Shown one piece after another: positions 39,420 through 50,354 of a stretch of DNA of 64,000 nucleotides. Under the pieces are notes generated by a model. That model was not told where the DNA came from, did no database searches, and saw only the letters and a program-made list of their open reading frames with translations. Position numbers and translations under genes: made by a program. This DNA is from Ruminococcus sp. (lineage in GTDB: Bacteria > Bacillota > Clostridia > Oscillospirales > Ruminococcaceae). Where the stretch lies: the NCBI GenBank assembly GCA_015066785.1, contig SVNT01000004.1, forward strand, positions 126,376-190,375. The letters are read 5' to 3'. Within the stretch, counting starts at the first letter, position 1. Each line of letters starts with the position of its first letter.

Positions 39420-39437
39420 TTTTTCTGGTCGAGGTGA
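39420..39437. repeat. 18-bp direct repeat of the tRNA-Pro 3' end (att-like island boundary)
   Basis: TTTTTCTGGTCGAGGTGA is identical to 50272-50289, which covers 12 nt of the tRNA 3' end plus 6 nt downstream. Confidence 0.55.
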
Positions 39438-39541
39438 AATGCGACATGGGGAATACGCATTTTCAGACGGGGAAGAGGTGCGACTGGGTAATATTGACAT
39501 TCACGGGCAAAGCCCGGAAGTCGCTTGGCTTACCGAAGATT

Positions 39542-39796
39542 TTATGATGATTGTTTCAGCAGCGGGGAGAAAGTGGGTGAAAGAGATATTTCAATAAACC
39601 CATCATCAAGATCTATGGATTTAACGCCAGTGCCATATCCAGTTTCAATTACATCATCGCTAAGTTTTGCAATCTCGTCGCTGTATTTCCCTAATACGCC
39701 AAAACTTGTTCCTGCTATAACGCCGACAGTTCTGGCAATGGCTTCTTCGTCGTCACCGTGCTCAACGCATAAGGCTATTGCAAGGGTTTCAAGCCA
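39542..39796 (-). pseudogene. Orphan conserved pre-toxin handle fragment with no toxin domain
   Basis: Open frame with no start codon begins right after the upstream stop. LETLAIALCVEHGDDEEAIARTVGVIAGTSFGVLGKYSDEIAKLSDDVIETGYGTGVKSIDLDDGF, then unrelated tail. Confidence 0.5.
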
Positions 39797-40033
39797 TTAT
39801 TTCGAAGCGTATCTTTGTATTTTTTTCAAGAAAAATTCGCACGCTTCCGCTTCTGTTTCGAATACTTTTAATCCGCTTTTATTGCCACGTTCACTATAAT
39901 AAACTTGCCATGTTTCTTCTTTCACAAGACATAATTTCTCATTAGGCAATCCTCCTACCATTATAGAATATGATTCATTAGGTATCTCCATCATTTCTAG
40001 TTCTTGTTCTAATTGTGCAACTGTCATTATCAT
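39797..40033 (-). CDS. Putative immunity protein (78 aa)
   Basis: AAGGAGG RBS, ~35 nt after the stop of the toxin remnant. Small acidic cytoplasmic protein in the cassette position. Confidence 0.5.
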   Translation of the reverse strand: MIMTVAQLEQELEMMEIPNESYSIMVGGLPNEKLCLVKEETWQVYYSERGNKSGLKVFETEAEACEFFLKKIQRYASK

Positions 40034-40069
40034 TGTATCCTCCTTAATATACCAGCATCTAATAATTCA

Positions 40070-40265
40070 TCAACTGACAATATGTGTTCCCGTTTTTGAA
40101 TAGTGGATTATTCCCATAGTTGTATCAATTGTTTCATTTGTTACTTGGTTTACATACTGTCCTATTACTTTACCAAAATCAATACGTTCCTTATTGGTAC
40201 CTATCCACTCTCCTGTACTCACAAAGTCATTTCCCGAATCAGCAATCAGACGGTTTACTTTTTCA
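40070..40265 (-). pseudogene. Toxin C-terminal remnant ending ...GIIHYSKTGTHIVS
   Basis: About 65 codons, open, with no start codon. Lies one frame off the tail of ORF 40266..40895. Confidence 0.4.
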
Positions 40266-40895
40266 TCATTTAATAAGTCTCATCAAAGCCGCAAATGCCC
40301 TGAAAAGTCCACCTGCTCTGTGCGGCTCTTTCATTTTTTCAGCAAAAGAATCTCCAAGCTCTTTAAGCTCATCAAACGCACTTGTTTCTCTGTAAGGTCT
40401 GCGCTTTATCCCCTGCGCTCCCCCTCTGTTTACACTTCCGAAGTGTTTTTCTATAGTAACTGCATCTTCAGGGCTATCTATTACGCCAATTTCTTTGTAC
40501 TTCCATAGGGTAAGTCTTTTTTCAAAGGAGCTCTTTTCATCAAGAGATGATGTGTATTCCGAAATTATTTCTCCGTCTACAACAAAAAGGCTTATGGTTT
40601 TACACTCCCTGCCCTTGTATTCCTTTTCGTACCCACGACGAAGATCAAAGAAAAGCCCACTGAGCTTTCTGTACTGTTCGTCAAATGTTTCTTTTGAAAC
40701 GGAATATTTTTCAGGAATTTCGTTTATTTCGAGAAATCTTTCGTCTTTATCCGTTCTGAAAAATATCGAAAAGACTGGCTTTGTTTTCAGGAACTCAACG
40801 TAAACCGCAAGTTCTGTGCATTCCTTGGGAATAATTTCATCAATGAGCTTGACCAACTGCAGATAATACTCGTTCTCTGTATTTATCAGTAACAT
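40266..40895 (-). CDS. DUF600/YezG(EsaG)-like immunity protein with an extra ~60-aa tail (possibly a chimera)
   Basis: ELAVYVEFLKTKPVFSIFFRTDKDERFLEINEIPEKY...ISLFVVDGEIISEY follows the DUF600 pattern, as does 49631..50047. The tail VNRGGAQGIKRRPYRE... is not found in the other copy. Confidence 0.55.
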   Translation of the reverse strand: MLLINTENEYYLQLVKLIDEIIPKECTELAVYVEFLKTKPVFSIFFRTDKDERFLEINEIPEKYSVSKETFDEQYRKLSGLFFDLRRGYEKEYKGRECKTISLFVVDGEIISEYTSSLDEKSSFEKRLTLWKYKEIGVIDSPEDAVTIEKHFGSVNRGGAQGIKRRPYRETSAFDELKELGDSFAEKMKEPHRAGGLFRAFAALMRLIK

Positions 40896-41160
40896 AAGAT
40901 CCTCCTATCATCTCATCCGCATATTTTGAAACTGCACCTGTACCCATACCAGCAATTACGCCGACAGTTCTGGCAATGGCTTCTTCATCATCGCCATGTT
41001 CAACGCATAAGCCTATTGCAAGGGTTTCAAGTCCTAAACTCACGAATACGCTGGCATAGCCGTTGATAAAAATGTGCCTTAGAATAACTTTTTTCATGAA
41101 ATTTTTTATGCTAAAAGCATAAAACACTGCTGATGCACTGACTGAGTTATGTAGATACAT
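40840..41160 (-). pseudogene. Conserved pre-toxin handle fragment abutting the DUF600 gene (toxin domain deleted)
   Basis: ...GLETLAIGLCVEHGDDEEAIARTVGVIAGMGTGAVSKYADEMIGGS runs directly into the RBS and ATG of 40895. Confidence 0.5.
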
Positions 41161-41164
41161 AAAT

Positions 41165-41650
41165 TTAAATTAATTCAGAAAGCCAATTATCCAAAGCATC
41201 TCCCTCGAAATTCTCTACTGATTGCTCAATATCTTTAAAATCCAATACTGGCGTTTTCACTATTTTTAATGCTTCAATTTCTTTTCTTCTTATATGCTTA
41301 ATAAACACAAATTGCTCCTTCTTTTCAAAAATATATTCCTGTGCTAATTGCTCTGAATCAGTCCATATCATATACGAATCATCAAGTACAGCATTTTTAG
41401 ATATTTCACCTGCAAATAATCGAAAGTATTTATCTTTATATTTTATAAATACATCTTCACTGTATATTACGTCCACCTCATCAGAATTAACAATTTTCAT
41501 ATATAACTCAGAATGTTCATTTCCCAGTACATCAATATAATTAGTAAACCCCTCCTTCTTTACTCTTGATGTAATTATGTATTTACAATTTCTCTTTTTA
41601 ATTTTGCATTTTAAGCCACTATACATACAATACATATCACTCATACTCAA
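41165..41650 (-). CDS. Putative immunity protein (161 aa)
   Basis: Immediately downstream of toxin module 41662..42663. Its 3' ~115 nt are duplicated at ~47700-47815. Confidence 0.5.
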   Translation of the reverse strand: MSMSDMYCMYSGLKCKIKKRNCKYIITSRVKKEGFTNYIDVLGNEHSELYMKIVNSDEVDVIYSEDVFIKYKDKYFRLFAGEISKNAVLDDSYMIWTDSEQLAQEYIFEKKEQFVFIKHIRRKEIEALKIVKTPVLDFKDIEQSVENFEGDALDNWLSELI

Positions 41651-41661
41651 AACTCCTCAAC

Positions 41662-48976: not shown

Positions 48977-49205
48977 GCTGAGAACCTATATCATCTATAA
49001 GCTGCTTCATCTGTATAAATGAAGGTTTGAGTGTATTAAACTGCATAGCAAACTGTTCACTCGCCTGCCCTTCCCATTCATCCCGAAGTGCATTGATCAG
49101 ATTCTGCATTTTATCTATTACCTGCCGAAAATTCTCGCCTTCATTTCTTACTTCCGCCGATCTTGAACGCATCTGTTCCGGTGAATTTCTTATCTGTCCT
49201 GACAT
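48912..49205 (-). CDS. WXG100 family protein (island copy)
   Basis: 97 aa. MSGQIRNSPEQMRSRSAEV..., DEWEGQASEQF WXG motif. Confidence 0.8.
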   Translation of the reverse strand: MSGQIRNSPEQMRSRSAEVRNEGENFRQVIDKMQNLINALRDEWEGQASEQFAMQFNTLKPSFIQMKQLIDDIGSQLDGTANAIERLDQDIAQNFSI

Positions 49206-49362
49206 TTTAATGTCATCCTTTTATTTGTTAATGTATTAACATACAATTTAATACTTAAAATACCTCTTTTTTGCTTCTTTTGACATATCATTTTAGTAAA
49301 ACACATGTTTTTTCGAGTGAAATCAGAATATATACAAAAATCCCCACCTGTAAGAGCAGTAA

Positions 49363-49584
49363 ATCGCAACACAGTGCTATGAAATAGATGAAAATGAAGC
49401 TGAAGCGGTGCGATATATTTTCAATAGCATAAGCGAGGGCAAAAGCTACAATGCTGTGATTACCGACCTTAACGCCAAGGGATTCCGGACAAGAAGCGGA
49501 AATTTATTTGGTAAGAACAGCTTATATGATATGCTTCATAACGAGAAATACAAGGGCGTTTACATTTACAACCGCCGCTCTTGA
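49363..49584 (+). pseudogene. Large serine recombinase internal fragment
   Basis: YEIDENEAEAVRYIFNSISEGKSYNAVITDLNAKGFRTRSGNLFGKNSLYDMLHNEKYKGVYIYNR matches the recombinase-domain pattern. No start codon, no catalytic N-domain and no C-terminal part. Confidence 0.6.
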
Positions 49585-49648
49585 ACGCATCTGTTCCGGT
49601 GAAATTCTTATCTGTCCTGACATTTTAATGTCATCCTTTTATTTCGTT
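49571..49648. repeat. About 78-bp duplicate of the esx 5' end and RBS (copy of 49155-49232)
   Basis: CCGCCG(A/C)TCTTGAACGCATCTGTTCCGGTGAA(T/A)TTCTTATCTGTCCTGACATTTTAATGTCATCCTTTTATTT occurs at both sites, flanking the recombinase fragment. Confidence 0.75.
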
Positions 49649-50047
49649 AAGCCATTCCAAAAATACTTCTCCCGAATTTTTTTGAGTTTTTGAAGAACAC
49701 ACTTCCTCGTATTTGTATTCAGCAGTATACTTTCCGGACGATACATCATAATACAATTTCATTTCAGTCGGAATCTGCATATTATGCTTTTTACAAATAC
49801 CATCTAATTTCCCCAAATCTTCTGTACCAAGTTTCAAGAACTGGAATGCCAAATTATTAGGCACCCCCAATTGATTCAATGTTTTTATTTCGCCATTAAC
49901 ATCAAAAAAAGCATTAAACATCTTGCTCTTCTTTTCGTTAGAACAATACACATAAATTTTACTTATTTTTTGTTCAGTCACCTCCATACATAATGATATC
50001 AATGCTGATTGCAAATCCATAAATTCATCTTCAAATACCTTATTCAT
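49631..50047 (-). CDS. DUF600/YezG(EsaG)-like immunity protein
   Basis: Start MNKVFEDEF behind AAAAGGAG. KIYVYCSNEKKSKMFNAFFDVNGEIKTLNQLGVP...MKLYYDVSSGKYTAEYKYEEV follows the DUF600 pattern. Confidence 0.6.
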   Translation of the reverse strand: MNKVFEDEFMDLQSALISLCMEVTEQKISKIYVYCSNEKKSKMFNAFFDVNGEIKTLNQLGVPNNLAFQFLKLGTEDLGKLDGICKKHNMQIPTEMKLYYDVSSGKYTAEYKYEEVCSSKTQKNSGEVFLEWLNEIKG

Positions 50048-50095
50048 TTCTATACTCCTTTTAATTATATATTTTTTGATAATAATACACATCAT

Positions 50096-50220
50096 CTATC
50101 GTATACGATACATCAAATGAAGTTGGACGAATACTGAATCATAGTTAATAACAATATCAACTGTTACTTTTTGACCATTTTTCAACGCTTTTACCCACTG
50201 ATTTTCAATCACTTTAAACT
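50096..50220 (-). pseudogene. EsaD/YeeF-type (Endonuclease_NS_2-like) nuclease toxin C-terminal remnant
   Basis: NLSEFKVIENQWVKALKNGQKVTVDIVINYD resembles the N..f..lE..W..Al..G..V.v.i..Y end of these nucleases. No upstream part; it abuts the tRNA terminator. Confidence 0.4.
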
Positions 50221-50224
50221 CACT

Positions 50225-50275
50225 CAAATTGAAAAAATCCGCAAGCAAGCCTTTTTGAAGCCTGTTGCGGATTTT
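50225..50275 (-). terminator. Hairpin terminator downstream of tRNA-Pro
   Basis: AAAAATCCGCAA...TTGCGGATTTTT stem-loop. Confidence 0.55.
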
Positions 50276-50277
50276 TC

Positions 50278-50354
<77 letters not shown>

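Follow-up and report, generated by a model that had tools for sequence, protein, structure and literature searches.

A type VII secretion-associated toxin/immunity array beside tRNA-Pro(CGG) in Ruminococcus sp., probably an integrase-less remnant island

The 18-bp repeat and the interval it bounds

We analyzed a 64-kb stretch of a Ruminococcus sp. genome (contig SVNT01000004.1; the whole stretch is called the window below), in which a 10.8-kb interval (39438-50271) filled largely with toxin and immunity genes lies between two copies of an 18-bp direct repeat, with tRNA-Pro(CGG) at one end and purC beyond the other. The tRNA gene, which is intact, is the sole tRNA of the window and the conserved anchor of the locus, and was placed at 50278-50354 on the minus strand by both ARAGORN and Rfam (RF00005, 66 bits). 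The 18-mer, TTTTTCTGGTCGAGGTGA, was found only at 39420-39437 and 50272-50289 in the window, even when up to two mismatches were allowed, and it had no match in 100 dinucleotide-preserving shuffles. The right, tRNA-proximal copy (50272-50289) resembles a left attachment site (attL). On the minus strand it reads TCACCTCGACCA, which comprises the last T-stem base, the 3' strand of the acceptor stem and ACCA, followed by GAAAAA. The left, distal copy (39420-39437), an exact match, is attR-like and has the form of a displaced tRNA 3'-end fragment. It lies in direct orientation on the 3' side of the intact tRNA, as Islander requires of such a fragment, and no additional tRNA homology was found on its inward side. 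An earlier note on this DNA had described the repeat, had assigned the right copy to the last 12 nt of tRNA-Pro(CGG) plus six downstream nt, and had allowed for further copies of the 18-mer. The first two statements were borne out, and no copy beyond the two was found in the window.

Both repeat copies precede strong hairpins, as shown by RNA folding. Terminator T1 (50232-50277, minus strand) is carried by the interval directly 3' of the tRNA (fold -28.4 kcal/mol, z -5.4) and is kept in a sister species described below. Terminator T2 (39387-39424, minus strand) follows the left repeat directly and lies upstream of the purC promoter; its 18-nt arms are 94% complementary (fold -20.4 kcal/mol, z -7.3). 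A simple terminator scan missed both hairpins, since its loop and stem rules are unsuited to them. The layout of T2 is that of the tRNA-Pro terminator in the outgroup locus L116, namely CCA, GAAAAG and a hairpin. Five of the six nt in the GAAAAA past the tRNA belong, at both copies, to the A-tract of the hairpin terminator, which pairs with the T-run. The repeat identity beyond terminator architecture is therefore about 12-13 nt, which at a compositional boundary is still much more than chance would give. Neither the left repeat nor T2 falls within the conserved purC leader of other species, the homology of which stops at 39343.

The GC content of the interval was 0.345, in comparison with 0.463 in the glnA-purC block on its left and 0.468 in the right flank. 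The tetranucleotide usage of the interval correlated with that of core regions at r 0.41-0.49, whereas the core regions correlated among themselves at r 0.83-0.93. The region at 7-35 kb of the window is likewise AT-rich (GC 0.38), but it carries the core tetranucleotide signature (r 0.85-0.88). The impression in the earlier note that the interval is more AT-rich than its flanks was thus confirmed by both profiles, which deviate as is expected of an island at a tRNA gene (tDNA). The data support the conclusion that the 10.8-kb interval is compositionally foreign DNA lodged immediately 3' of tRNA-Pro(CGG).

Pfam searches of the interval detected WXG100, barnase/barstar, Ntox50, YezG-like, DUF6572 and DUF7957 domains and an Endonuclease_NS_2 fragment. 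Multiple toxin C-terminal domains were found, with an immunity gene behind each. The cargo is predicted from these domains to be an array of polymorphic-toxin C-terminal modules associated with type VII secretion (WXG100), each followed by its immunity gene. Everything between the repeats had been taken in the earlier note to be minus-strand toxin/immunity material; this holds for the array, but not for a recombinase fragment on the plus strand or for the 126 nt at the left end.

Seven copies of a junction sequence precede modules in the array (repeat families D1, D2, D4, D5, D7 and D9). The translated junction contains ..LETLAIGLCVEHGDDEEA(I/V)ARTVGVIAG..(S/V)KYADE.. and also ..CVEHGDDEEA... 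The motif was not found outside the array in the window, and it matched no Pfam family. The breakpoints of variant arrays (L006, L124 and the sister array, see below) lie inside this repeated, conserved pre-toxin stretch, as in orphan cassette arrays.

Strains, sister species and array-free outgroups

The same purC or ABC-binding-protein gene was found in about 20 contigs of the window's species from metagenomes and metagenome-assembled genomes, which come from a dozen samples, and all of these contigs carry the array. Two of them, L006 and L124, represent a sub-lineage that is about 97-98% identical to the window. Both keep the left junction (repeat, T2 and purC) and differ in their cassettes, and their recombination breakpoints are inside the terminal junction copy (39564-39793). 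Contig L010 (GCA_045592025.1) was 98.6-99% identical to the window up to the CCA of the tRNA and diverged immediately thereafter; an unrelated sequence of 660 nt follows, and homology is found again at a WXG100 5' fragment. In L010 (11070-13150) the 660 nt hold an 89-aa open reading frame (ORF) without a family match, and the 275-aa truncated large serine recombinase of this contig is 62% identical to the integrase of Moorella phage MCACPph1. The short contigs L013-L015, which end at 50329, were considered as strain variation at the tRNA and rejected, because the tRNA is an assembly repeat that is presumably shared across species in the same samples.

A sister species (GCA_054276555.1, contig JAZOIN010000005.1) was reached by a homologue search with the ABC-binding protein, which is 78% identical, and its contig was walked using a junction-ORF match and a 96-aa protein that is identical in both species. 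It carries an array of about 33.2 kb (at about 31.9-65.1 kb; L111, L125 and L132) at the same tRNA. The nucleotide identity between the sister and the window was 72.8% in the ABC-binding-protein gene and 76.3% in ilvB, and the spacer before the tRNA could not be aligned. The tRNA was 100% identical, the next 714 nt were 96.5% identical and the WXG100 block was 98.5% identical, so the interspecies jump in identity begins at the tRNA. The cassettes common to both species were 93-98.6% identical and stood in a different order. The sister array ends exactly at window position 39563, and this end is followed by a hairpin and a promoter of its own and by an 810-aa gene, here called gene X.

The sister array consists of two WXG100-headed sub-arrays with a LytTR response regulator/histidine kinase pair between them, and its cassettes include Ntox28/CdiI_3, AHH/DUF4274, TNT/Imm63, Imm11, Imm33, Imm48, Imm70 and SUKH. 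We considered this two-component system as a clue to rearrangement and discarded it, since it is not an ortholog of the window system at 29-31 kb (20-27% identity).

Two outgroup loci have no array. In L116, from a more distant species where the ABC-binding protein shows 60% identity, the sequence after tRNA-Pro(cgg) consists of GAAAAG, a hairpin and an ortholog of gene X. Between the sister and L116, the promoter of gene X was 81% identical and the first 568 nt of the gene were 75.5% identical, and the protein N-termini align directly. In L143, a hairpin comes after tRNA-Pro(cgg), and the gene behind it encodes an unrelated membrane protein. The CCA of the tRNA was the homology breakpoint in all three comparisons of the window, namely those with L010, the sister and the outgroup. 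The pair of ABC-binding-protein gene and tRNA-Pro is therefore a conserved anchor, and the DNA after the tRNA is variable. Relative to the L116 arrangement the array is an insertion, and gene X is the ancestral neighbour of tRNA-Pro(CGG).

Origin of the interval

We consider that the interval is probably the remnant of an island at the tRNA-Pro(CGG) 3' end that has no integrase. The 18-bp repeat would be the scar of a tyrosine-integrase-type insertion, and the orphan toxin/immunity cargo, linked to type VII secretion (T7SS), would now be changing by homologous recombination at the junction repeats and would pass between species, the invariant tRNA serving as one of the anchors. The insertion would have entered the 3' end of the tRNA gene, which would have been restored from element DNA, while the original 12-nt tRNA end and its terminator would have been displaced to the far side, giving the 18-bp direct repeat. 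The island integrase would have been lost subsequently, and the serine-recombinase piece would come from a later, decayed phage-type insertion. The immunity genes may protect the cell from the matching toxins of neighbours, and the promoter-less toxin ends may act as a reservoir. Homologous recombination at the junctions of about 250-360 bp would swap toxin ends within the array, between strains and between species.

Integrase subfamilies are reported to prefer particular sublocations within tRNA genes, the extreme 3' end included. A viral contig (L138; IMGVR_UViG_3300031555_001594, positions 159-1100), which is GC-rich, encodes a tyrosine integrase (phrog_1, E 6e-19), followed by the 3' part (about 50 nt) of tRNA-Pro(cgg), the same GAAAAA and a hairpin. 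This region looks like an int-attP module for tRNA-Pro(CGG). It shares with the window the same terminal 18-mer (TCACCTCGACCAGAAAAA) and the hairpin behind it, so the 18-mer can belong to a phage att site. However, the tRNA portion in the phage is about 50 nt long, running from the anticodon loop to the 3' terminus, and an integrase adjoins it, whereas the left copy in the window has 12 nt and no integrase beside it; moreover, the tRNA part of the phage differs from the host tRNA in the T arm.

The ends of tDNA islands are marked by a regenerated tDNA and a displaced fragment (PMC4383910). The window resembles the islands collected by Islander in its intact tRNA, a displaced 3' fragment downstream in direct orientation, a foreign interval, and a 3' end that would be restored by element DNA (PMC4383910). 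Unlike them, it has no tyrosine integrase gene, which Islander requires, its fragment holds 12 nt of the tRNA, no tRNA-purC empty site was found among relatives, and the sister lacks the displaced fragment (PMC4383910).

Several observations weigh against a tyrosine-integrase island. Among the 23 main ORFs of the interval, Pfam detected no integrase between the repeats and, as the only recombination gene, the serine-recombinase fragment; scans of 25 flanking ORFs detected none elsewhere in the window. The att-like repeats are present, while no other recombination gene and no transfer gene was found in the Pfam scans of the interval. The tRNA part of the repeat comprises 12 nt only, and the other six are mostly terminator A-tract. 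The six nt after CCA vary among close relatives, being GAAAAA in the window, TAATAA in the sister and CTTTAA in L010. Both ends of the island run into gene remnants, with no clean attP region. Between the conserved end of the array and the left repeat lie 126 nt (39438-39563) with a core-like GC of 0.48, and the sister array has neither these 126 nt nor the distal tRNA fragment. This segment had no match in phages, plasmids, viral contigs or the 139 loci fetched, and its 52-aa ORF had no Pfam match. In addition, no full-length junction-bearing toxin gene was found in the window.

Ancestrally, the distal flank (purC-galE-maoC-glnA) did not adjoin this tRNA, and no relative has purC beside tRNA-Pro(CGG). 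An empty site of this kind had been predicted in the earlier note, and it was not found: the array-free relatives have gene X (L116) or the membrane-protein gene (L143) after the tRNA, and in no relative are the two flanks adjacent. The predicted attB reads ...AATCCCGTCACCTCGACCAGAAAAA(A)GCTCACAGG... and the attP of an excised circle ...CATGTCGCATTTCACCTCGACCAGAAAAATCCGCAACAGG... The empty junction CCCGTCACCTCGACCAGAAAAAGCTCAC had no match in metagenome contigs as an exact pattern, which could miss a sub-lineage with an extra A in the A-tract. The purC genes of 80 other species in genome contigs encode proteins 89-96% identical to that of the window, but they never occur with galE or the ABC-binding-protein gene, so these loci are of no use as empty sites. 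A metagenome scan with the ABC-binding protein gave only relatives of 42-52% identity, and no tRNA gene was present in any of the loci fetched. The homologues of galE (37394-38398) at 98% identity were confined to its own species, and the next best of 4805 matches was at 64%; the lack of a close outside ortholog suggests that the GC-rich glnA-maoC-galE-purC block is not in its ancestral position.

In sum, the att-flanked integrated island of the earlier note stands as to its foreign DNA, the repeat of the tRNA 3' end, the tRNA-type terminator at the distal copy and the existence of array-bearing and array-free relatives. It falls short in the missing integrase, the missing purC/tRNA-Pro empty site and the sister array without a distal tRNA fragment. 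The locus also calls for caution, since a tRNA-end repeat and AT-rich cargo imitate a classical island, whereas the present one is decayed and integrase-less and its boundaries may reflect more than one event.

The main alternative, which is possible though we regard it as rather doubtful, is that the two ends have separate histories. Homologous recombination alone, anchored in the tRNA and the junctions, would then have built up the array at a tRNA-Pro hot spot, and the left repeat, the 126 nt and T2 would be the attR-side scar of another, lost element, or would have come with the purC block in a rearrangement that broke at the distal end of the array. This account fits the sister array, which stops at 39563 and continues into its own hairpin and gene X, and it fits the core-like GC of the 126 nt. 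The distal flanks of the two species are unrelated, the tRNA had gene X beside it ancestrally, and outside the species no galE ortholog exceeds 64% identity. The identity jump begins at a 77-nt tRNA that is identical in both species, as a homologous crossover there would produce. Furthermore, in one species (L024) tRNA-Pro(TGG) and purC share a strand, with the tRNA 570 nt upstream, so a tRNA-Pro/purC locus is a possible source of the left repeat. However, separate histories need at least two independent events that bracket a compositional island precisely and in direct orientation, and the identity of the repeat copies extends six nt past the tRNA. Phages, plasmids, viral contigs and the fetched loci gave no trace of the other element that this account requires. 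A small deletion may instead have removed the distal repeat from the sister; GAAACAA is present at both candidate deletion ends, but it is only 7 nt long.

A still-mobilisable array is a less likely alternative, and we give it little credence. It would be excised and re-integrated in trans through the 18-bp sites by the tyrosine integrase of a resident phage or integrative and conjugative element (ICE) specific for the 3' end of tRNA-Pro(CGG), in the manner of a cis-mobilizable element (CIME). CIMEs have lost their integration and transfer genes and have kept attL and attR (PMC6323972). The locus is like them in its att-like repeats, in the lack of integration and conjugation genes and in its near-identical cargo in two species with diverged core genes, but no cognate ICE or integrative and mobilizable element is known for it, and its att sites are putative (PMC6323972). 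The exchange between species can also be explained by homologous recombination alone. If mobilisation in trans were true, complete sets of type VII toxin and immunity genes would travel as one unit among species of gut Clostridia, which would explain an array identity of 96-98% in species whose core genes are 73-76% identical.

A chance match of 12-13 nt, which appears longer because both sites are terminators led by an A-tract, is very improbable. The A-tract pairing of five of the six non-tRNA bases in both hairpins and the native tRNA-Pro flank of L116, which reads GAAAAG, are in keeping with it. However, a 12-mer is expected only about 0.004 times per strand in 64 kb (64000/4^12), and the 18-mer had no further match in the window or the shuffles. 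The left copy also lies at the compositional boundary, in direct orientation and directly ahead of a terminator, outside the conserved purC leader.

The fragment of a recombinase gene that had been seen inside the interval was confirmed. It consists of a 58-aa ORF (49408-49584, plus strand; PF07508 Recombinase, E 1.9e-12) within the remnant of a phage-type large serine recombinase (49368-49629, plus strand). The remnant is 97.7% identical to part of the 275-aa Resolvase+Recombinase ORF of L010, relative to which the window has a 1.6-kb deletion and keeps 58 of the 275 aa. Its best matches are phage large serine integrases, with up to 62% identity. No complete serine recombinase was found at an end of the element, the ORFs being 58 aa in the window, truncated at 275 aa in L010 and missing in the sister. 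The remnant was not found in the sister array, whose head is otherwise 96-98% identical, and because it is missing there it is a later, secondary insertion in the species of the window. Serine integrases exchange strands at a 2-bp core and are not known to leave repeats of 12-18 bp. Integration of the island into the tRNA by this recombinase is the least probable account of all: it is the sole recombinase sequence in the interval and its longer copy in L010 lies about 0.7 kb from the tRNA, but it came later than the array head, is truncated in both strains with its end fused to an antisense WXG100 fragment, and has its relatives among phage integrases, and tDNA targeting is known only from tyrosine integrases (PMC4383910). 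The caution in the earlier note that serine recombinases do not typically use att sites in tRNA genes was well placed, and the fragment is judged not to be the island integrase. Chance and integration by the serine recombinase are thus effectively excluded.

The remnant-island reading opens no new question, since islands linked to tRNA genes are well known, and so are orphan toxin arrays. The locus is rather a worked example of how uncultured ruminant-gut Clostridia store and exchange the toxin/immunity repertoires used in competition. Here the array occupies a tRNA hot spot and undergoes reshuffling at its conserved junctions, and near-identical cassettes occur across species with about 25% divergence in housekeeping genes.

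Cassettes of the array and other loci of the window

The features of the array are given here from the tRNA to the distal end, all on the minus strand. The first is the C-terminal fragment of a nuclease toxin (50096-50230; Endonuclease_NS_2-like, about the last 45 codons), which is truncated at its 5' end and has no credible start; its match to PF13930 is weak (E 0.0027) and covers the C-terminal part of the profile. Directly after it, the putative immunity gene of this head cassette (49631-50095, 154 aa) shows 96.5% nucleotide identity to the sister and no Pfam match. A duplicate of the WXG100 5' end with its ribosome-binding region follows (49566-49644). It is a 79-nt repeat, 95% identical to 49148-49226, and is also present in L111 and L010. 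The two copies lie on both sides of the serine-recombinase remnant, and they are also found in the sister, which has no recombinase; the duplication therefore predates the recombinase insertion. The WXG100 (EsxA-like) gene at the head of the array is intact and lies at 48912-49205 (PF06013, E 2.4e-20). Its 3' end overlaps a truncated 120-aa toxin C-terminal ORF, which is followed by a putative 102-aa immunity gene; this segment (48295-48976) is 98.5% identical to the sister and has no Pfam match.

The next cassette (46484-47815) comprises a junction repeat (47326-47815), a barnase-type RNase toxin (46909-47490; PF00545, E 2.3e-8) and a barstar-type immunity gene (46484-46906; PF01337, E 2.7e-5). 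The region 45307-46483 holds an 81-aa toxin-end ORF, a DUF6572 protein (45900-46241; PF20212, E 6e-34) and a 193-aa ORF, and is 93.5% identical to the sister cassette. At 44253-45287, a junction is followed by a toxin C-terminal domain (44556-45038, with the frame open upstream to 45287), which was recognized by homologue search, and by a 96-aa immunity-like gene (44253-44543), the protein of which is identical in the sister. The C-terminal 90 aa or so of this toxin end matched 417 cluster representatives and, among the matches listed, aligned to the C-termini of proteins of up to 3468 aa. Such C-terminal placement is the hallmark of a polymorphic-toxin module.

Further along, 42673-44118 holds a 140-aa ORF, a junction (43465-43700), a 185-aa toxin ORF (43015-43572) and a DUF7957 immunity gene (42673-43014; precomputed PF25857 assignment), and is 94% identical to the sister cassette. 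A junction (42508-42725), a 267-aa toxin ORF (41662-42465) and a 161-aa UCP033725-like ORF (41165-41650; weak precomputed PF27768 match) make up 41165-42725. The region 39797-41160 contains a junction-only ORF (40840-41160), a YezG-like immunity gene (40266-40895; PF04634, E 2.5e-14), an Ntox50 toxin end (40070-40222; PF15542, E 7.4e-14) and an Imm59-like 78-aa ORF (39797-40033; weak PF15597 match), and shares 97.3% identity with the end of the sister array. The array's conserved distal end (39564-39793) is a terminal junction remnant with no toxin behind it, whose translation reads ...LETLAIALCVEHGDDEEAIARTVGVIAG... up to a stop. The segment beyond it (39438-39563) is the one missing in the sister. 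In addition, a 365-bp direct repeat, 94% identical, was found at 40910-41271 and 47453-47815; it spans the end of an immunity gene, the intergenic DNA and the first part of a junction ORF (MKKVILRHIFINGYASVF...). The copy at 47.6 kb has a break in the reading frame that separates the N-terminal part from the barnase-type toxin.

Arrays of this type are known from Rhs loci in Salmonella (PMC3967940), MafB loci in Neisseria (PMC4287609) and immunity arrays of type VI secretion (T6SS) in Vibrio cholerae (PMC5361080). They share with the locus tandem toxin C-terminal modules with cognate immunity genes, a homologous pre-toxin stretch before each module, and strain-variable cassettes with breakpoints there. 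Unlike these systems, the present locus has its links with a WXG100 gene and with a T7SS-like locus of the Gram-positive kind, not with Rhs, contact-dependent inhibition (CDI), Maf or T6SS; it has no full-length junction toxin in the window, its head toxin is truncated, and the ..CVEHGDDEEA.. junction belongs to no Pfam family. Pfam scans detected no LXG domain in any ORF of the array. As no LXG ORF is present and the first toxin after WXG100 is itself truncated (120 aa), the modules have no full-length toxin in the window; longer N-terminal regions were seen only in short contigs from elsewhere. The LXG loci of the T7SSb in group B Streptococcus likewise bring together WXG100, fragments of toxins and small immunity-like genes in a region prone to recombination, and orphaned modules headed by WXG100 occur there apart from the secretion-machinery genes (PMC9900821). 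The array differs from the LXG loci in the lack of an LXG domain and in its position: 17 kb separate it from the EssC-like gene, and it lies past housekeeping genes and beside a tRNA (PMC9900821).

The purC promoter and 5' leader (39201-39343) showed 83-86% nucleotide identity to those of three other species (L016, L038 and L049). A small hairpin, AAGGCGGTTTTCCGCC, lies immediately ahead of the ribosome-binding site within this conserved part. The leader had no Rfam match and may be an uncharacterised regulatory element.

An AT-rich T7SS-like locus of unusual signalling make-up occupies 7252-24621 of the window. The array thus has, besides its own WXG100 gene, an EssC-type FtsK/SpoIIIE ATPase nearby (17419-22011, 1530 aa), which carries an N-terminal FHA domain. 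The locus also encodes a separate FHA protein (11250-11918), a PP2C phosphatase fused to TPR and an RHS repeat (11928-13694), a Ser/Thr kinase fused to TPR (13715-15880) and three TPR+DUF2963 proteins. Just past it, on the opposite strand, is a TPR+LRR protein (24670-26235). An accessory T7SS cluster (31485-35243) adjoins a LytTR two-component system of the window. It encodes a YwqH-like protein, a 440-aa protein without a Pfam match, a WXG100-CHAP fusion (32249-33178) and two WXG100 genes, so that further WXG100 genes lie at 32-34 kb.

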